DNA of 64,000 nt. It comes from Vairimorpha necatrix (taxonomy: Eukaryota). Shown here piece by piece: positions 9,680-43,764 of this stretch. The notes below the pieces were generated by a model. It had not been told where the DNA came from. It worked only from the letters and a program-made list of their open reading frames with translations, and searched no databases. The first letter of the stretch is position 1. Each line of letters begins with the position of its first letter. The position numbers and the translations under genes are program-made. The DNA lies in assembly GCA_036630325.1 (NCBI GenBank), contig CP142726.1, positions 1,488,001 to 1,552,000 of the forward strand, read 5' to 3'.

Positions 9680-11090
9680 AATGATTATATCAGTAGGTAA
9701 CAATTTTATAAAAATACTTGAACTAAAATTGATTTTTTTTTCTAAAACCACATCACTTTTCTGTAAATCATTTTGATTAAACTTGACTTTTGATTCTTGA
9801 TTTTTTACGAAAAACATTTAAATTATTTTTTAAACATAATAAATATCTCTTAAGCTTGTTTTTGTAATGATCTTTTTGTTCTGTGTGAATTAAACAATGA
9901 CGTTATTAAATTAAAAAGTAAAGAAAAAACAAAATACTTAAAAATTATAAGCAAAGAACAACAATTTTTAGGTTTACCCAGCAAATAAACATTAATAATC
10001 GTTTTAACATTATTAAACAGCTGTTTTTGTTCGTTTAGAAAGTACAAATGTTTTTAATACCATTTGACATTAATTAAATTAATATAAATATAAATTTCCT
10101 CTATTACCCATAAAATGAATATGAATTATTTAGTACTATTCAATATTCTTACAATAGTAAAATCGTCTCATGCAGAACATGTAAATGAAGGCGCGGCCGA
10201 AAATGAAGTTATAGATATCGGAAATGAAACTGTTAAAGATAAACATGAAGAATTGGATGAAAAGCCTGTAGACAAAGACGAGAACGAAGATGCGGATATC
10301 AAGAATCTAGTAATAGACGATCATCCAGTAGGCATTAAGAAAGAATATCTGAATGTTATCGAATTCGTTGATATGATTTCTGATATCATGAATATCGAAA
10401 CTGATCCCCAAAAAGATGTATTAATAGGCATTTATACATATTTCGATGGCCAAATCGACCAAAAGTCTCTTTTGTTTACTGCCGCAAGTTTACTCAATAC
10501 TGATAATTTTACCAAGATGGTCGATCCTGATGATAATAATAAGTATAAAAGAAGAGGCTTATTACGAATCAAAGATAGTTGTAATTATAAATTACTTACT
10601 AAATTATCGGGAATTGAAGATTATTACAATTATCCCGAGAAACTGGAAGAAACAAATACCCAAACAGTGTGTGATACAATAAAGTATTATGGGTATGTTA
10701 TGAAAGACGATTATACTGTAAGAAATTATCTGAGAGTAATGGGGGAAGGCGATTATGGACAGATAAAAGATATGCCTGATGTAGTTAACCTTGTAAGGCT
10801 TTATGAAGATTTTAAGAGACTGTTTGTTTTGTAAACTAATTAAAAGTATTTATTTAATAACTAATTATTTTTTATATAAGATTGACAGTATTATGTACTG
10901 TAAAATGAAACAATATGTGTATGATCATCATAATTATATAATTACAAAGATCTATACCACGTGGGACTTAATTTTGTTGTTTAAAAAAAACATTCTGTAT
11001 ATATAGTACAGATTTATAAACGGATAAATACATAGAACAAGTTCCTTGATACATAAGTAATTATACACAAAGCAAAACATTAAAGAATAA
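9680..11090 (+). repeat. Segmental duplication copy 1 (~1.4 kb; copy 2 at 13971-15373)
   Basis: Direct match from AATGATTATATCAGTA to CATTAAAGAATAA, including gene and flanks. Confidence 0.95.
10115..10834 (+). CDS. Putative secreted protein, 239 aa, paralog A
   Basis: CCC upstream of ATG, signal-like N-terminus, acidic N-terminal half; intact paralog at 14399. Confidence 0.85.
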   Translation: MNMNYLVLFNILTIVKSSHAEHVNEGAAENEVIDIGNETVKDKHEELDEKPVDKDENEDADIKNLVIDDHPVGIKKEYLNVIEFVDMISDIMNIETDPQKDVLIGIYTYFDGQIDQKSLLFTAASLLNTDNFTKMVDPDDNNKYKRRGLLRIKDSCNYKLLTKLSGIEDYYNYPEKLEETNTQTVCDTIKYYGYVMKDDYTVRNYLRVMGEGDYGQIKDMPDVVNLVRLYEDFKRLFVL

Positions 11091-13970: not shown

Positions 13971-15373
13971 AATGATTATATCAGTAAATAATTATTTTAT
14001 AAAAATACTTTCAAATTTTTCTGATTTTTTTTCTAAAACCACATCACTTTTCTGTAAATCATTTTGATTAAACTTGACTTTTGATTAATACAGAAAAACA
14101 TTTTAAATTATTTTTTAAACATAATAAATATCTCTTAAGCTTGTTTTTGTAATGATCTTTTTGTTCTGTGTGAATTAAACAATGACGTTCTTAAATTAAA
14201 ACGCAAAAAAAAACAAAATACTTAAAAATTATAAGCAAAGAACAACAATTTTTAGGTTTACCCAGCAAATAAACATTAATAATCGTTTTAACATTATTAA
14301 ACAGCTGTTTTTGTTCGTTTATAAGGTATAAATATTTTAAAAATCATTTGACATTAATTAAATTGATAAAAATATAAATTTCGCCCATTGCCTTAAAAAT
14401 GAATATTAATTATTTAGTACTATTCAATATTCTTACAATAGTAAAATCGTCTTATGCAGAACATTTAAATGAGGGCGCGGACGAAAATGAAGTTATAGAT
14501 GTCAGAAATGAAACTGTCAACGATAAACACGTAGTCTTGAATGAAAAGCCTGTAGACAAAGACGAGAACGAAGATGCAGATATCGAGAATCTAGTAATAG
14601 ATGAGCATTCTGTTTGCATTAAAATAGAATATCTTAATGTTTTCGAATTCATCGATCTGATTTCTGAAGTAAAGGACGTCGAAACTGATTACCAAAAAGA
14701 AGTATTAATAGCCATTTATACATATTTCAAAAGTCAAATCGACCAAAAGTCTCTTTTGTTTACTGCCGCAAGTTTACTCAATACTGATAATTTTACCAAG
14801 ATGGTCGATCCTGATGATAATAATAAGTATAAAAGAAGAGGCTTATTACGAATCAAAGATAGTTGTAATTATAAATTACTTACTAAATTATCGGGAATTG
14901 AAGATTATTACAATTATCCTGAGAAACTGGAAGAAATAAATACCCAAACAGTGTGTGATACAATAAAGTATTATGGGTATGTTATGAAAGACAATTATAC
15001 TGTAAGAAATTATCTGAGAGTAATGGGGGAAGGTGATTATGGACTGATAAAAGATATGCCTGATGTAGTTAACCTTGTAAGGCTTTATGGAGATTTTAAG
15101 AGACTGTTTGTTTTGTAAACTAATTAAAAGTATTTATTTAATAACTAATTATTTTTTATATAAGATTGACAGTATTATGTACTGTAAAATGAAACAATAT
15201 GTGTATGATCATCATAATTATATAATTACAAAGATCTATACCACGTGGGACTTAATTTTGTTGTTTAAAAAAAACATTCTGTATATATAGTACAGATTTA
15301 TAAACGGATAAATACATAGAACAAGTTCCTTGATACATAAGTAATTATACACAAAGTAAACATTAAAGAATAA
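13971..15373 (+). repeat. Segmental duplication copy 2 (copy 1 at 9680-11090)
   Basis: Direct match to 9680-11090; begins immediately after the right end of Merlin element 2. Confidence 0.95.
14399..15118 (+). CDS. Putative secreted protein, 239 aa, paralog B
   Basis: Same length as 10115..10834; C-terminal half nearly identical, N-terminal half divergent. Confidence 0.85.
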   Translation: MNINYLVLFNILTIVKSSYAEHLNEGADENEVIDVRNETVNDKHVVLNEKPVDKDENEDADIENLVIDEHSVCIKIEYLNVFEFIDLISEVKDVETDYQKEVLIAIYTYFKSQIDQKSLLFTAASLLNTDNFTKMVDPDDNNKYKRRGLLRIKDSCNYKLLTKLSGIEDYYNYPEKLEEINTQTVCDTIKYYGYVMKDNYTVRNYLRVMGEGDYGLIKDMPDVVNLVRLYGDFKRLFVL

Positions 15374-32272: not shown

Positions 32273-34462
32273 TTATAGAATACATATAAATAATATAATA
32301 TTAATTATAAACATTAAATTAATCATCTCATCTACATTCTCTTTACTAATACACAATCTATCTAATATCTCCCCACACTTCTTACTTAATGTTTTCTCTT
32401 CTTCTTTTTTTCTTATAAATATCTCATTTACCATTTTCTCAATTAATAAATCACTATCTGTTTTTATATAAAATCCATATTCTACTTCTTTCTTAAATAT
32501 TTCTAACATGTCTTCTTTGATCTTATAATTCAGTTTTATGGGAATAGTGTCTAGTATCTGGTACATATTCCTGATATTATCAAAATATTTGGAACTGTCT
32601 ATTTTATTTTTTATAATTTCTGGAAAGTCGTCTCTTACGAATAAAAGCTTATCAAAAAGATTTTTAAAGATTAAAATTCTGTAAGAAACTTGTTCATTGA
32701 ATAATTTGTGGAGATAAGATTGGTAAGATTTGATATTTTGATTGGTGGTTTCTAGGAAATTATTGATTATTTTTTGGAATTCTAGGAGGTCTTTAGAATT
32801 TTCATTTTTAGCAATATTATGAGCTTTTTCTTGTGCTAGGAAATTCACAGCTTTTTCATTTACTGGAGAAAAATTGCTAGAATTTTGATCTTTTTTGATT
32901 GTTAAATTTTTTGCACTTTGTACTGGTACTAAAATCCCCTTAATAGAATTTTGACCTTTTTGTACTGGAAATTTTGGCCTTGATTCTGGTACTATAAAAT
33001 TTTGACTTTTTTGTGTAAATTTGGGCCTTGTTTCGGGTAATGTAAAATTTTGACCTTTTTCATTTGTTAAAACTTTTGATCTTGTTTCTGGTACTGTAAA
33101 ATTTTGACCTTTTTTGCTTGTTAAATTTTTTGCACTTTGTACTGGTACTGTAAAATTTTGACCTTTTTCGATTGTTAAATATTTTGCACCTTTTTCAGGT
33201 ACTAAAACATTTTGACTTTTTTCAGGTACTAAAATATTTTGACCTTTTTCTTGTGCTAAAATATTTACTGCCTTTTCTGGTACTAAAATCCCCTTAATAG
33301 AATTTTGACCTTTTTCAGGTACTTGAAACTTCTTACTAATACTTTGACTTTTCTGTCTTAAGTAAAATTGACATCCATCAATTTTCCCATATTTACAATC
33401 TTTATCTAATATTTGTCCATAAAATAACATTACTAAACTTATAAAACTTATCATTGTTATTATAAAACACATTAATACATAAAAAATCTTATAAAAAACC
33501 ACAAAATTAAAAACAGTACTACAAAAAAATACCATACAAATAATTGATATTATCAAAAATATGTATCGTATTTTCAATATATTTTTTATAATCTTGTTAT
33601 GTCTTCCTAAAAATCTCGTCTTTTTATTATTATTTTCTAGTTTTATAAAATTATTTATATAATTTAATATAAATTGATTATTATTAATCTTTTTTATATC
33701 GAAAAATTTATCAATTTCTGATTTTAAATCTGCAAATTCAAATTTGAAATATTTTGGTGAACTGTTTAAGGCGAATAATTCGGTAGATATTTTTCGAGAC
33801 ATTTTTATGAAAATGTCGAAATCTTTAGTGAAATCTTGGAGTAATTTTTGAGTGATTTTTTTTCTTTCTTGTAAATTTTCATAGAATTTATTAAAAGATG
33901 ATTCGTTTTGGATTTTTAGTTGGAGTGTGTTTTTAAATTTTAGTATGAAATCTGATGTCTGGTATAAAGTTGGGGAGTCGTTTATTATGTTATTTTTATA
34001 TTGTGAAATGTTCCTGTCTTTTTTATTATAATTTTTAAATTGTTCCGTATAAATCTTATGATTTTGTTTATTGTCATCATTAATTTGTTTGGAGCTGTCA
34101 AAATTGAAATTTGTATTGTTATTTTGTTTTGTATTATCACTTAGTAATTGTGATATATTGTCTTTATTTCTTCCTCTAGTACTCTTTTCAATATTAAGTC
34201 TTTCTATGACTTTGATTTTGTGTAGTATTAGTGCACACAATATTAATAATATTCCATACCCGAGTCCCAAATTAATATGATCATAAGATTTCCAAATGAA
34301 GGAAATGACTATTATATTGAAGATGAGAAGTAGAAGAATAAATATGACAAATTGGTATCTTTCTCTTATTTCGTGAATAAATAAAGAAGTATCAGGGAAG
34401 TGTACGGGGCACCAAGGATTAGAGTTCTTAAGTAGTCTTTTATGAGCATGGATGATATATTT
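32273..34462 (-). CDS. Multi-pass membrane protein with internal PEKGQN repeats; start codon unresolved
   Basis: Frame stays open upstream of the ORF-track TTG to 34462 and adds another TM (YQFVIFILLLLIFNIIVISFIW); about 5 TM segments; no in-frame ATG at the 5' end. Confidence 0.7.
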   Translation of the reverse strand, partial: KYIIHAHKRLLKNSNPWCPVHFPDTSLFIHEIRERYQFVIFILLLLIFNIIVISFIWKSYDHINLGLGYGILLILCALILHKIKVIERLNIEKSTRGRNKDNISQLLSDNTKQNNNTNFNFDSSKQINDDNKQNHKIYTEQFKNYNKKDRNISQYKNNIINDSPTLYQTSDFILKFKNTLQLKIQNESSFNKFYENLQERKKITQKLLQDFTKDFDIFIKMSRKISTELFALNSSPKYFKFEFADLKSEIDKFFDIKKINNNQFILNYINNFIKLENNNKKTRFLGRHNKIIKNILKIRYIFLIISIICMVFFCSTVFNFVVFYKIFYVLMCFIITMISFISLVMLFYGQILDKDCKYGKIDGCQFYLRQKSQSISKKFQVPEKGQNSIKGILVPEKAVNILAQEKGQNILVPEKSQNVLVPEKGAKYLTIEKGQNFTVPVQSAKNLTSKKGQNFTVPETRSKVLTNEKGQNFTLPETRPKFTQKSQNFIVPESRPKFPVQKGQNSIKGILVPVQSAKNLTIKKDQNSSNFSPVNEKAVNFLAQEKAHNIAKNENSKDLLEFQKIINNFLETTNQNIKSYQSYLHKLFNEQVSYRILIFKNLFDKLLFVRDDFPEIIKNKIDSSKYFDNIRNMYQILDTIPIKLNYKIKEDMLEIFKKEVEYGFYIKTDSDLLIEKMVNEIFIRKKEEEKTLSKKCGEILDRLCISKENVDEMINLMFIINIILFICIL
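32825..33330 (-). repeat. Intragenic degenerate tandem repeats (EKGQN-x-x-VP units)
   Basis: Recurring TTTTGACCTTTT and GGTACTAAAA blocks; longer block GGTACTAAAATCCCCTTAATAGAATTTTGACCTTTT present twice. Confidence 0.85.
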
Positions 34463-39543: not shown

Positions 39544-39757
39544 TCATATAACATAATAATACATTGTATAATATTATATTATATTGTATAATTTTGTATA
39601 TAATATTTATTATATTGTATAATATTGTATATATATTTTATTATATTGTATAATATTGTATATATATTTTATTATACAGTATAAATTACTAATACAAAAC
39701 ATCTCTTAGTTGATTAATTTGATACATTTGTTATAAATTGTCTTTGTTTATCAAGTC

Positions 39758-40474
39758 ATGAATATTAATCTCTTAGTTTCTCTTCTAGAAATGTCTATTA
39801 ATACTTACCACGATGAAGATCTCCCCAGTTTAATTTACAAGTATGGATATGACAGAGACGGGATGAGATGCAAGTTATTTGATTTCCACGGGGCACTAGT
39901 CCTGGCCATCAAGGGGACTTCCTTGAATATTCTGGGGTATGAGTTAGGGGAGACATCAGAGAATGACAAGGAGATGGTAAACATAATGTTTAAGAAATGT
40001 AAAAGACACAGACAAGAAAGAGATTGTGAATATTTAAAGAAGATTAAATTTGATAAATTAGGCTACTTGTCTAAGTTACAGAATATTCTCACATATGTGA
40101 AATATTTATACCCAAATAAGAAGATCTTCTTGACTGGCCACAGCCTGGGCGGGACTCTGGCCAGTCTCCTGAGCCCGACCTTCGATCTCCAGTGTGTCAC
40201 TTTCTCCTCCCCTGGGGACTTGTACATTTCCAGAATATTACAAATAAGAAATAAGAAGATAAAAGAGAACTTGTCTCATTTTGGAATGTGTAATGACTCG
40301 ATCTTCTCTGGGAGATGTGACAGACTGTGTAAATTACTGGGGTACTCAGTAGACACAGTCAAGCACAATGGGAGGGTCTACTGTCTAAAAATAAGGCCGA
40401 ATATAAAGAGTGTAATATTTCATAATAGTAGTGTATTATTAACATATCTCAAGAAACTCTTACACCAAAACTAA
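39758..40474 (+). CDS. Class 3 lipase, Atg15-like
   Basis: VLAIKGTS, TGHSLGG, VTFSSPG, HFG..NDSIF.G.C. Confidence 0.85.
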   Translation: MNINLLVSLLEMSINTYHDEDLPSLIYKYGYDRDGMRCKLFDFHGALVLAIKGTSLNILGYELGETSENDKEMVNIMFKKCKRHRQERDCEYLKKIKFDKLGYLSKLQNILTYVKYLYPNKKIFLTGHSLGGTLASLLSPTFDLQCVTFSSPGDLYISRILQIRNKKIKENLSHFGMCNDSIFSGRCDRLCKLLGYSVDTVKHNGRVYCLKIRPNIKSVIFHNSSVLLTYLKKLLHQN

Positions 40475-40479
40475 TGACA

Positions 40480-40660
40480 TATTAGTATAATAAAAGATTA
40501 CAACAGATTAGTATAATAACAAATATTAAAAGATTAACACATATTAGTATAATTTGAATTATAATAGCAGATTAGTATAATAACAGATTAGTATATAACA
40601 GATTAAAATAGTAACAATATTATAATAACAGACTAGTATAAATTAGATTAGTATAATAAC
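40480..40660. repeat. Degenerate tandem repeat AGATTAGTATAATAAC
   Basis: Roughly 7-8 imperfect copies downstream of the lipase gene. Confidence 0.8.
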
Positions 40661-40782
40661 AAATAATTTACATTAATCTTACTTTAGTGTAATACAACAA
40701 AGTCACATGAAATTATGAATAAATCAAAATTCTTAATTTGATAAATTAAATTAATTATAAATATAATTATCTTAATACTCTT

Positions 40783-41008
40783 TGTCAAGTGACAGATCTC
40801 CAGTGGTCCTAAGATTGCCCTGGAGCTCAGAGAATACGATTCTATAAGTATTCTCTTTCTTCTCCCAACTATGTTTATGGAGGGAAAATATATAATATTT
40901 TCCCGCCTATAAATATAAAAGAAAATCATACCCAGAAGGGTATGAAGAATAATAAAAACATTAGTTTAAAACATTCTTCTCAGACTGATGGGAAACCATC
41001 AGTCCACA
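40783..41008 (+). repeat. 5' LTR
   Basis: TGTCA...CCACA, identical to 42980-43205; contains TATAAATATAAAA. Confidence 0.97.
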
Positions 41009-42957
41009 ATGGTGGTAACGGTGACGAGGATTTGAACGATCACCTAAATAGTCTTATCACTCACATGAAGAAAATATGTCTGAGCAAGAGGTGGACAGAA
41101 TTTAACGGCGAAAATCCAAAACAAGCCGAAGATTTTTTAACTCAGTTCCGCGAAATTGAGGACGTGTATACGCAAGAGAAAACGCTAGATATTGCCAAAT
41201 CTAAACTTAAAGGCAAGGCGTTAACATGGTTCAGAGCGTTCGAGGGTGATGAAATTACAGACTATGATTCATTCAAAACCCAGTTTAAAAAAAAGTATTT
41301 AAAAGAAAAACTAGCAGAAGATATAACTGATAGGTTCATACATCTATACGTGGAGGGTCCAAAAGAAGGCGACATTTTAAGTTACGCTTACGACCTCAAA
41401 AGATGTGCAAAAGGAAACCCTGAATATTTTGCCAGATCAAAGATTTCTATAGGAAAGAACTCCCCTGATAGGTTGAAGGAGTCTATTGAAGAAACGAAAG
41501 ATTGGTTGGAATTGCTGGAATTAGTTGAGAACAAACAAACTTTTATAAATAACTATTTAAACAAAAAGAAAACACTTAGTAGGAAACCAACATATGAAGC
41601 CACTAAACGAGAAAGGAAAAATAATAAACTCATTGGTCAAAAGGCAGAACAAGTATATTCTGCCAAGCTTTTAAAGTTGGGGAAAGAAAAAAATACTACT
41701 CAATTACAAGATATCCGCCCGAGGATAAATTTATATTCGGGAACAACACAAATATCCGCTCTTAATGATACCGGATCTCGAGTGAATCTTAAAAGTAAAA
41801 CAATGATTCAGAAATTGGAATTAAAACCAATAATAGATACGCTTAAGGTAGATAGAAAAGGAGACCAGGTTGAAGCAGAAGGGAAAACACAAGTTTTTAT
41901 CAAAAAGCCAAAGATCAAGAAAAAATTAAAGATCGAGGCTCATGTAAAAGAGAAATTACCGGAAAACTTCATCATTGGCATACAAGATACCAAGAAACAG
42001 AATCTACTAAAAAGTCTCGATAAAATGGAATATGACAGAACAAAGAAATCTGTTTGTACAACTATGGTGAAAAAACCAGACACGTATATAACAGAAATGG
42101 GCGGAGAGAATCTAGTTCAAGAAGAAAAGGAAAAAAGTAATAAACTTGATATAAAACCTTCTATAACATTCCATATTAAAGACCAAAGCTCAAGTGTACA
42201 TCGTAGCATAGATTTGAAAGTGCCAAAGGATCTTACAGCATTAAAGAACATTCAACATAGAAGACTAATAAGTCAAAATGAAGCGATAAGAGTCAAGCCC
42301 GTAGAGCTGGTGAAAGAAACCCATACTGGAGAAACTTGTTCGACGTGTACTATCCCGATTGCTTTAGACAAAGGATTTTTCAGGGACAAAGGAATATATG
42401 TGAACCCGCGAGAACTTTACATAATTAAAAAACAAGTTGGTTACCCAACTCCTTACATTGAAGAAAATCATGATCCACCTGAATGTATAAGATGGGGCTT
42501 GAATTTAAGGCATCGTCAGATAAGTACCTGGGAGAAATACAGAGAACAGTCGCCATATAACGGACTAATAAAAAATGTTCACAGGCGTAGTGTACCCCCT
42601 GGGCTTAGAAATATACCATTCAATTGCAATTTTATGATAAATGGATGGCGTAAAAATTACGACGAAGGTTTAGAAGTGCCTCGCTACACACATATCATTT
42701 ACACGATGATTAAACCAGGAGAAGAAACAGGAATAGTTATAAAACATGAGAAATTAGGTGTTCATAAACTACAAAACACAATACAAAGGCGAAACCCGCC
42801 GATAAACCTCAAGAAGAAAGTGATTGATAAAAGGGGAAAGTCATATATTACCCCTGTAGCCAAAATAAAGCGAGCCTATAATTCATATAACCTAAATAAG
42901 GACGCAGTCACTATTTACTGTAAGTACTTTAAGATGTGTCGTCAAATGGGAACCTAG
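40942..42957 (+). CDS. Gag-protease-degenerate RT polyprotein (671 aa)
   Basis: Gag capsid-like FNGENPKQAEDFL...LKGKALTWF; protease ALNDTGS; RT relic (VNPREL, YPTPYIEE, VPPGLRNIP) without YxDD; no RNase H or integrase. Confidence 0.85.
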   Translation: MKNNKNISLKHSSQTDGKPSVHNGGNGDEDLNDHLNSLITHMKKICLSKRWTEFNGENPKQAEDFLTQFREIEDVYTQEKTLDIAKSKLKGKALTWFRAFEGDEITDYDSFKTQFKKKYLKEKLAEDITDRFIHLYVEGPKEGDILSYAYDLKRCAKGNPEYFARSKISIGKNSPDRLKESIEETKDWLELLELVENKQTFINNYLNKKKTLSRKPTYEATKRERKNNKLIGQKAEQVYSAKLLKLGKEKNTTQLQDIRPRINLYSGTTQISALNDTGSRVNLKSKTMIQKLELKPIIDTLKVDRKGDQVEAEGKTQVFIKKPKIKKKLKIEAHVKEKLPENFIIGIQDTKKQNLLKSLDKMEYDRTKKSVCTTMVKKPDTYITEMGGENLVQEEKEKSNKLDIKPSITFHIKDQSSSVHRSIDLKVPKDLTALKNIQHRRLISQNEAIRVKPVELVKETHTGETCSTCTIPIALDKGFFRDKGIYVNPRELYIIKKQVGYPTPYIEENHDPPECIRWGLNLRHRQISTWEKYREQSPYNGLIKNVHRRSVPPGLRNIPFNCNFMINGWRKNYDEGLEVPRYTHIIYTMIKPGEETGIVIKHEKLGVHKLQNTIQRRNPPINLKKKVIDKRGKSYITPVAKIKRAYNSYNLNKDAVTIYCKYFKMCRQMGT

Positions 42958-42979
42958 GAGGCTTTAAAGAAGGGGGGAG

Positions 42980-43205
42980 TGTCAAGTGACAGATCTCCAG
43001 TGGTCCTAAGATTGCCCTGGAGCTCAGAGAATACGATTCTATAAGTATTCTCTTTCTTCTCCCAACTATGTTTATGGAGGGAAAATATATAATATTTTCC
43101 CGCCTATAAATATAAAAGAAAATCATACCCAGAAGGGTATGAAGAATAATAAAAACATTAGTTTAAAACATTCTTCTCAGACTGATGGGAAACCATCAGT
43201 CCACA
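42980..43205 (+). repeat. 3' LTR
   Basis: Identical to the 5' LTR, preceded by the PPT. Confidence 0.97.
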
Positions 43206-43281
43206 CTCTTTTTCATTATTTTGATTACGTATTTAATTAATTCTTAAATTCCTCTTATTTCATTTTACTGCCCATCACTTC

Positions 43282-43764
43282 ATGTCCTACCACCACATCA
43301 AGAAATTATTCGACGAATATTTAAAGAAAAATCATCCAGAAGTCGATTTTTATAATAAAAATGACATAGAAAATACAATGCAAATGTACGGGAAACACTA
43401 CAAATCTGTCATCCCTTTTAGAAATCTCTACTTTAGAAAAAAGATCTTTGAGACGGAGAAAACTCAATTCTTAAGGAGAAATCCTTATATTCATAATTGG
43501 AAAGAAGAGGAAGCAGAAAAAAACGAGAAAAATGAAAATAAGAAAGGAGACGGAGAAAGAAGGATTTATAAATGTACATTGGGGAATTGTAATAGGCAAT
43601 ATACTTCAGCCTTCGGGCTGAAGTATCATATGAAAGAAGGACACTCAGAAAAAAAACTCAATGTTCATAAACCATTTGTGTGTGATGTAAAAAATTGTGG
43701 GAGGAAATATAAAAATAATAATGGGCTGAAATATCATCTTAAGACATTTCATAATATAAAATAA
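43282..43764 (+). CDS. C2H2 zinc-finger transcription factor, Sfp1-like
   Basis: Two C2H2 fingers; KPFVC...CGRKYKNNNGLKYH resembles the Sfp1 signature KYKNxNGLKYH. Confidence 0.85.
   Translation: MSYHHIKKLFDEYLKKNHPEVDFYNKNDIENTMQMYGKHYKSVIPFRNLYFRKKIFETEKTQFLRRNPYIHNWKEEEAEKNEKNENKKGDGERRIYKCTLGNCNRQYTSAFGLKYHMKEGHSEKKLNVHKPFVCDVKNCGRKYKNNNGLKYHLKTFHNIK

Follow-up and report, generated by a model that had tools for sequence, protein, structure and literature searches.

A recently inserted 2.4-kb long terminal repeat element in Vairimorpha necatrix encoding Gag, a protease and a probable remnant of reverse transcriptase

The 64,000-nucleotide stretch of Vairimorpha necatrix DNA analyzed here (assembly GCA_036630325.1, contig CP142726.1, forward-strand positions 1,488,001 to 1,552,000; hereafter the window, whose own numbering is used throughout) contains at 40783-43205 a compact long terminal repeat (LTR) element of 2423 bp, with 1971 internal bases. 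A single open reading frame (ORF) of 671 amino acids, P0001, occupies it, and in this frame a Gag region and a protease (PR) region are followed by a tail that is most likely a heavily diverged, catalytically dead reverse transcriptase (RT) domain. A first-pass annotation made from the letters of the sequence had described the locus as a very young, TR-GAG-like element in a microsporidian. The parts of the element are as follows.

40778-40782, + strand: left copy of the target-site duplication (TSD), CTCTT; read from the sequence, same as 43206-43210
40783-41008, + strand: 5' LTR, 226 bp, TG...CA; 100% identical to the 3' LTR
40942-42957, + strand: single 671-aa ORF P0001 with Gag, protease and RT-like tail; ORF list and translation
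41010-41021, + strand: site resembling a primer-binding site (PBS), TGGTGGTAACGG; read from the sequence, inside the coding frame
41065-41640, + strand: Gag (capsid) region, residues ~42-233; Pfam, phmmer and alignment
41704-42030, + strand: retropepsin region, residues ~255-363, with NDTGS and IIGIQD; alignment with the protease domains of relatives
42079-42954, + strand: RT-like tail, residues 380-671, without YxDD; hmmsearch, hhalign and shuffle tests
42966-42979, + strand: polypurine tract (PPT) AAAGAAGGGGGGAG; read from the sequence
42980-43205, + strand: 3' LTR, 226 bp; identity to the 5' LTR
43206-43210, + strand: right copy of the TSD, CTCTT; read from the sequence

Structure of the element and its reading frame

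Self-comparison of the window aligned the two LTRs with 226 of 226 bases identical, and a 27-nt pattern taken from the beginning of the LTR has two occurrences in the whole window, whereas 100 shuffles gave an expectation of 0. The LTRs end in TG...CA and both are directly flanked by CTCTT; the TGG-initiated PBS-like site follows the 5' LTR after one spacer base, and the purine tract adjoins the 3' LTR. Paired TG...CA repeats with a TSD and an adjoining PPT place the locus among LTR retrotransposons, and the base-for-base identity of the LTRs, together with the intact TSD, PBS-like site and PPT, bears out the view that the insertion is very young. The G+C content of the element is about 32-33%, compared with roughly 20-30% in its surroundings. 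No tRNA gene was found in the window, and no complement of the PBS of the kind used in Tf1-type self-priming was seen in the LTR when the sequence was read by eye.

Within the 5' LTR, reading of the sequence identified TATAAATATAAA at 40908-40919 and AATAAA at 40951-40956, which may act as a promoter or poly(A) signal. A blastn self-match revealed an imperfect palindrome at 40870-40917 (and 43067-43114), 82% over 49 nt, that overlaps the start of TATAAATATAAA. A 9-bp hairpin with a GAAA loop lies at 40983-41004, 4 nt short of the LTR terminus, and the 126-nt leader at 40935-41060 folds at a z score of -4.0, with none of 200 shuffles equally stable.

The ATG of the ORF (40942) falls within the 5' LTR, at a distance of 67 bp from the LTR end, a feature that the first-pass annotation did not state, and U5 and the PBS-like site are consequently translated in frame. 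In yeast Ty1, an autonomous Ty1/copia element, the Gag ORF likewise has its start in the 5' LTR, and the coding sequence includes the PBS. An N-terminal MK..NNK motif is common to the related proteins P0002, P0003, P0008 and P0011, and the peptide SVHN.G, common to the ORF and P0002, corresponds to the LTR end and the PBS. As annotated, the frame runs without a stop to the TAG at 42955-42957, 8 bp ahead of the purine tract. The exact protein of this ORF is missing from a collection of 15 billion proteins in which all four of the neighboring proteins tested are present, and it is therefore apparently unannotated. In the available text of Parisot et al. (2014, PMC4202319), microsporidian Ty3/gypsy elements encode a single polyprotein, so that one frame running through Gag, PR and RT is inherited and not new. 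The unbroken frame is real, and such a frame is normal for microsporidian Ty3/gypsy elements (same text, PMC4202319).

Gag was recognized directly: residues 84-133 match Pfam Retrotrans_gag (PF03732) with 26.3 bits, above the cut-off of 24.1 (E 8.5e-6); Ty3_capsid reached 20.1 bits, under its cut-off of 29.1. An exhaustive phmmer search of 1.84 billion representative proteins (E <= 0.001) returned 32 matches, all inside residues 1-437 and at no more than 36% identity. Part of the Gag region is covered by 30 of them, and the other two, P0017 and P0028, match chiefly the protease. Two of the 32, P0021 and P0026, are complete Ty3/gypsy polyproteins that include PR, RT, RNase H and integrase, and their Gag parts align at about 28% and at 26% (E 1e-11), respectively; P0026, from a contig of 5.4 kb, is assigned by name to the microsporidian Enterospora canceri. 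The alignment indicates that the Gag studied here lacks a CCHC zinc knuckle, unlike some relatives. The best match is P0002, a 536-aa metagenome protein on contigs of at most 2735 bp, which is 27% identical over 391 residues (E 2e-36) and is laid out like the ORF, with Gag, PR and a short tail. A word-indexed protein search with the whole ORF scored none of 8000 candidates.

For the protease, the direct Pfam match of the ORF is faint and falls short of the cut-off (E 0.072; 14.1 of the required 28.2 bits), and its identity therefore rests on relatives. The gag-asp_proteas domain is found in P0002 (4.8e-12), P0017 (3.5e-7) and P0028 (8.6e-8), and the ORF aligns with these domains, its ALNDTGSRV and FIIGIQD standing opposite ALIDTGATI and LILGMPE. 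The retropepsin is probably intact at its DTG motif. Two features of Ty3/gypsy elements, a Gag/capsid domain and a retropepsin with D-T/S-G, are in place, and the assignment of both regions in the first-pass annotation is upheld.

The tail beyond the protease

The case for RT in the tail (residues 380-671) was originally made from four peptides, VNPREL, YPTPYIEE, VPPGLRNIP and RYTHII, all of which are found in the ORF translation. YxDD occurs nowhere in the ORF and the dipeptide DD nowhere in the tail, so this cannot be a conventional polymerase. We compared the tail with an RT profile built from 117 of 122 Ty3/gypsy polyproteins, each kept if its match to the RT of P0026 exceeded 200 residues. 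With hmmsearch filters off and the tail searched alone, residues 389-509 align collinearly with the pre-finger and finger parts of the profile (E 3.2e-4 at Z=1), placing VNPREL on VDYRKL and YPTPYIEE on YPLPRIDD. The observed score was reached by 0 of 2000 shuffles for residues 380-512 and by 7 of 2000 for residues 380-671, compared with 256 of 2000 for the control residues 1-379. Because the linker part of this profile weakly matches unrelated lysine- and glutamate-rich stretches, a core-only profile was required; with it, the observed score was reached by 5 of 3000 shuffles for residues 440-512 and 31 of 3000 for residues 440-671, the Gag/PR controls giving 362 of 3000 (residues 1-232) and 575 of 3000 (residues 150-381).

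Comparison of the tail with RT by hhalign produced one collinear alignment of 243 columns (P 0.005), in which LNLRHRQI is paired with LDLxSGYHQI, VPPGLRNIP with MPFGLxNAP, and RYTHIIYT with VYLDDILIYS. Shuffles average 15.6 (sd 3.2); the score of the alignment, 26.9, is reached by 1 of 250 of them and exceeds those of the Gag/PR controls (15.7 and 15.9). The C-terminal, palm half, which lines up in order with the palm and thumb of RT, is unassigned and taken by itself is not significant by any of these measures: shuffles reach the score of residues 510-671 in 122 of 2000 cases with the full profile and that of residues 513-671 in 176 of 3000 cases with the core-only profile, and hhalign of residues 513-671 scores 14.5 (P 0.26). 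Since VPPGLRNIP and RYTHII both belong to this non-significant half, the proposed replacement of YxDD by RYTHII follows from the alignment, whereas the absence of YxDD is seen directly. An AlphaFold2 model of the tail alone was unusable, with a mean predicted local distance difference test score of 28.4, a predicted template modeling score of 0.15 and no residue above 50.

The alternative that survives best is that the tail does not derive from RT, an unrelated or novel domain having replaced pol and the motif matches being chance similarities in lysine-rich, AT-biased sequence. Consistent with this, Pfam matches nothing in the tail, RT (RVT_1) included, even at E up to 10, none of the matches among the 1.84 billion representatives extends past residue 437 to cover the tail, a PDB sequence search returned only chance matches to CD28 (E 0.9-1.3), and the nearest ESM Atlas clusters for residues 400-671, although RVT_1, score 0.86-0.87, under the 0.9 level from which such a neighbor counts for more, and so are a lead only. 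It is difficult, however, to reconcile such an origin with a finger half that beats its shuffles with two profiles and hhalign when the Gag and PR controls do not, or with an alignment that stays collinear over 243 columns and is placed where RT follows the protease in relatives. We therefore regard a non-RT origin as unlikely and an RT origin of the tail as likely. The RT relic of the first-pass annotation is thus supported in part, well for the finger half (0 of 2000 and 5 of 3000 shuffles) and no more than suggested for the palm half (p about 0.06); the hhalign P of 0.005 and the lack of a Pfam RT match concern the tail as a whole. The separate idea that the tail is a fused C terminus of pol was ruled out, since it has no similarity to the integrase of the related metagenome contig L002 described below (best E 1.4).

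The tail is also open to a degree that composition does not explain. Its own frame has no stops, while the two alternative frames have 33 and 25, and none of 20000 base shuffles of the tail is open (mean 21.5 stops, minimum 6); a composition-based estimate for an open frame is 2e-10. The openness noted in the first-pass annotation is not chance, and the tail, probably far-drifted RT sequence, appears to have been filtered for translatability.

Copies, relatives and surroundings

The element was seen directly in one copy only, and the 64-kb window holds no second copy, no solo LTR and no other retroelement, and hence no autonomous partner. Two window ORFs of 673 and 670 aa were considered as copies and rejected, as they are Hsp70 and an AAA ATPase. 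Public runs were compared as assembled contigs only, allowing 80% likeness and using 39700-42979 (one LTR and the left flank) as the query. The share of the element's sampled words present was 0.54 and 0.41 in two runs and 0.09 in a third, and no RNA run was among those listed as containing them. In run X2, depth was 60.5 throughout the flank, 1321, 3517 and 2680 in the LTR bins, 12-117 in most internal bins and 472 in the 90 bp that lead up to the 3' LTR. The corresponding values in run X1, where the uncovered parts of the stretch are uninformative, were 0-4.3 for the flank, 115 and 141 for the LTR, 0-17 for most internal bins and 7.3 for these 90 bp. Summed contig depth is not equal to copy number; with this limit, the internal region is low-copy, near flank depth, and the far greater depth of LTR-like sequence is a hint of an autonomous partner.

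LTR-like sequence does occur elsewhere. Contigs leave the 5' edge of the LTR into unlike sequence in X1 (five) and X2 (four at 40783 and two at 40782), and their consensus agreement is low (0.56-0.68), which indicates different flanks and thus LTR-like sequence at several sites. X2 also holds a 133-nt LTR contig with 2 differences at a depth of 317.7. Near-identical internal pieces are present in X2 (522 nt with 3 differences and 425 nt with 7) and X1 (167 nt with 0 differences, 349 nt with 6 and 626 nt with 11); X4 has only four short pieces, at less than 90% likeness. One X1 contig agrees with the LTR and PBS as far as 41040 and differs beyond that point, which hints at a different internal region. 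A 238-nt contig of run X3, labeled bovine metagenome, matches the tail at 42467-42704 with 0 differences.

A second, diverged variant is present in both X1 and X2. In X2 it differs by 7% over 41000-41628, 18% over 41695-42026 and 23% over 42169-42300, and its length changes keep the frame (142 nt becomes 139, and a +1/-1 pair lies six bases apart). Its substitutions number at least 38, and the 38 listed affect 36 codons, 15 synonymously and 21 not, with no stops. The synonymous excess is a modest sign of constraint that concerns the protease region only, not the tail.

These observations bear on a further alternative, that the element is a one-off dead copy, a defective genome co-packaged once, with no lineage behind it and no selection on its frame. 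The single copy in 64 kb, the near single-copy depth of the internal region in two runs and the missing annotation of the ORF in the public record would all fit. An RT devoid of any recognizable catalytic motif, however, needs long divergence, over which about 21 stops would be expected in an unselected tail (at least 6 in every shuffle). The frame-keeping indels of a variant already 7-23% diverged in two runs, and the same layout of Gag, PR and short tail in P0002, also speak for a lineage, and we consider a one-off copy improbable.

Among metagenome sequences, the 2034-bp contig L002 carries, in order, an integrase C terminus, AAAGAAGGGGGG, an LTR of ~350 bp, a TGG site and a Gag that is 35% identical to P0001 (alignment A2). 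Its AAAGAAGGGGGG, just before the LTR and hence in the position of the purine tract, has the same core as AAAGAAGGGGGGAG, and its ATG lies ~80 bp inside the LTR (L002 1408-1500). It follows from this layout, which is that of a related autonomous design, that relatives of the Gag occur in integrase-bearing elements and that the lineage as such is marked by the PPT core and by an ORF that starts within the LTR. At the place equivalent to the GAAA-loop hairpin, L002 (~1465-1486) has a hairpin of different sequence with a GGAA loop; the fold of L002 alone is not significant (z -0.9), and with these two examples the hairpin may be a conserved U5 element beside the PBS. L002 is filed under a Clostridium metagenome-assembled genome though it is a piece of a eukaryotic LTR retrotransposon, and is probably mis-binned.

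In further metagenome scans, alignment A1 offered no conserved stretch, alignment A2 matched 343 stretches with none confirmed, and P0002 found only the distant element L001, its own contig not being recovered. The 6693 bp of L001 include LTRs of 158 nt that are 99% identical to each other, and encode a polyprotein of 1746 aa in which visual inspection places the integrase (IN) motifs ahead of an RT with YVDD; its order is thus PR-IN-RT and its class different from that of the element studied here.

The genes of the window are intron-less and eukaryotic, and include Hsp70, the AAA ATPase, a class-3 lipase, a C2H2 zinc-finger protein and a poly(A)-polymerase-head protein. All named relatives of the Hsp70 down to 35% are microsporidian (Vairimorpha at 50%, two Nosema at 49 and 47%, Astathelohania, Ordospora and Encephalitozoon), and the host group named in the first-pass annotation is thereby corroborated. 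The C2H2 zinc-finger gene (160 aa) is encoded on the strand of the element and has its ATG 77 bp beyond the end of the 3' LTR (43206-43282), and the LTR could affect its expression. Directly upstream of the insertion site, at 40472-40670, are degenerate direct repeats of 36-45 nt with a ATTAGTATAATAACA core, where X1 differs from the window by a 16-nt deletion and a 10-nt insertion. Elsewhere, a duplication at 9810-10208 and 14095-14492 (spacing ~4.28 kb, 91-93% identical) overlaps in each copy the start of a 239-aa ORF (10115..10834 and 14399..15118), and tandem 27/54-nt repeats at 32816-33315 lie within a minus-strand 509-aa ORF (32273..33802) that has no Pfam family.

Classification and a possible mode of propagation

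Neither RNase H nor integrase was found in the element by Pfam, the 1971 internal bases leaving no room for them, and tblastn of the window with the full polyproteins P0021, P0026 and P0038 matched the Gag part only, the integrase of L002 matching nothing. The absence of both enzymes, correctly noted before, makes the element non-autonomous. Non-autonomous LTR elements are usually described as non-coding (TRIM, LARD) or Gag-only (TR-GAG), and mostly from plants. In open-access text, our searches turned up neither a non-autonomous LTR element from a microsporidian nor a layout of Gag, PR and dead RT.

As described in the accessible part of Chaparro et al. (2015, PMC4350172), TR-GAG elements are plant elements of less than 4 kb with typical LTR-retrotransposon features and a single, Gag-only ORF. 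The present element resembles them in being short, in its complete LTR termini, in one ORF that supplies Gag, in the lack of its own mobility enzymes and in its signs of recent activity. It differs in that its ORF adds a protease and an RT-like tail of ~290 aa. The term TR-GAG-like is therefore apt for size and LTR features and not for coding content, and by that definition the element is no TR-GAG strictly speaking (PMC4350172).

A parallel in descent is provided by the microsporidian Ty3/gypsy elements, with which it shares, as far as the text of PMC4202319 available to us goes, the host group, Gag homology, gag and pol in one frame, and the layout of LTR, PBS-like site and PPT. These elements encode RT, RNase H and integrase, in contrast to the 2.4-kb element here, from which three Ty3/gypsy features are missing: a catalytic RT with YxDD, RNase H and integrase. 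We therefore favor, with reasonable confidence, the interpretation that this is a recently integrated, trans-mobilized, non-autonomous derivative of the microsporidian single-polyprotein Ty3/gypsy lineage.

The element retains cis-acting sequences of both reverse transcription and integration (LTRs, PBS-like site and PPT), together with one ORF with Gag, a probably intact retropepsin and ~290 further residues. Because its LTRs are undiverged and its RT is unrecognizable to databases, its last transposition would postdate the death of the RT; for the same reason, RT, RNase H and integrase would have been supplied in trans, presumably by an autonomous relative. Because the tail is open far beyond chance, the copies that propagate would be those in which the whole frame is translatable, implying selection on translation. 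An effect of the product in cis seems the likeliest basis for this, the protein made of Gag, PR and dead RT capturing the RNA that encoded it and joining the particles of the helper in the manner of a Gag-Pol precursor. The nearest established example is the mouse IAP 1-delta-1 element, in the portion of a review available to us (PMC6466679): a deletion within the element has left it a single ORF, which encodes a fusion protein, gag and pol are needed in trans, and the gag-pol fusion protein promotes retrotransposition in cis. Cis action of this kind would explain selection on the frame here (PMC6466679, same portion). Both elements are non-autonomous with one fusion ORF, a shared cis effect being conjectural; IAP 1-delta-1, however, is a mammalian endogenous retrovirus with a recent deletion and a recognizable pol part, whereas the RT here is beyond database recognition.

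Several of the results above weigh against this interpretation. The element is known from a single directly seen copy with no partner in the window, and its low-copy internal region indicates that it is not a conspicuously successful parasite, within the limits of contig depth as a measure. The direct Pfam matches are weak for the protease and absent for RT, the palm half is not significant alone, the linker part of the RT profile also matches unrelated stretches, and the sign of constraint in the second variant is modest and concerns only the listed substitutions of the protease region. The remaining alternative, an old immobile element or domesticated Gag-protease gene under host-level selection, with LTR identity owed to gene conversion or assembly, would suit a frame clearly under some constraint and an insertion 77 bp upstream of the zinc-finger gene, where co-option of the LTR is conceivable, but is very improbable given the intact TSD, PBS-like site and PPT, the multi-copy LTR-like sequence with different flanks in two runs, and the lack of any orthologue of the ORF among annotated microsporidian proteins, the best match being 29-36% identical.

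The favored interpretation, of a trans-mobilized Ty3/gypsy derivative, leaves room for a more tentative extension, which we consider possible and by no means probable: that selection maintains the dead RT as a structural module throughout a lineage of Gag-protease-pseudoRT elements. If so, the module might dock the element's own precursor and RNA into helper particles, or hold primer and template, and it would represent a pseudoenzyme encoded by a retrotransposon that is itself the parasite of another parasite, within a reduced microsporidian genome.

In conclusion, the element presents a contrast between a recent insertion and a polymerase domain that appears long dead and is still translatable. 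It indicates that retroelement activity is current in the host microsporidian, where an LTR now lies upstream of a host gene, and it makes testable the question of whether a defective retroelement must translate its own product, the enzyme remnant included, in order to be copied by a helper.

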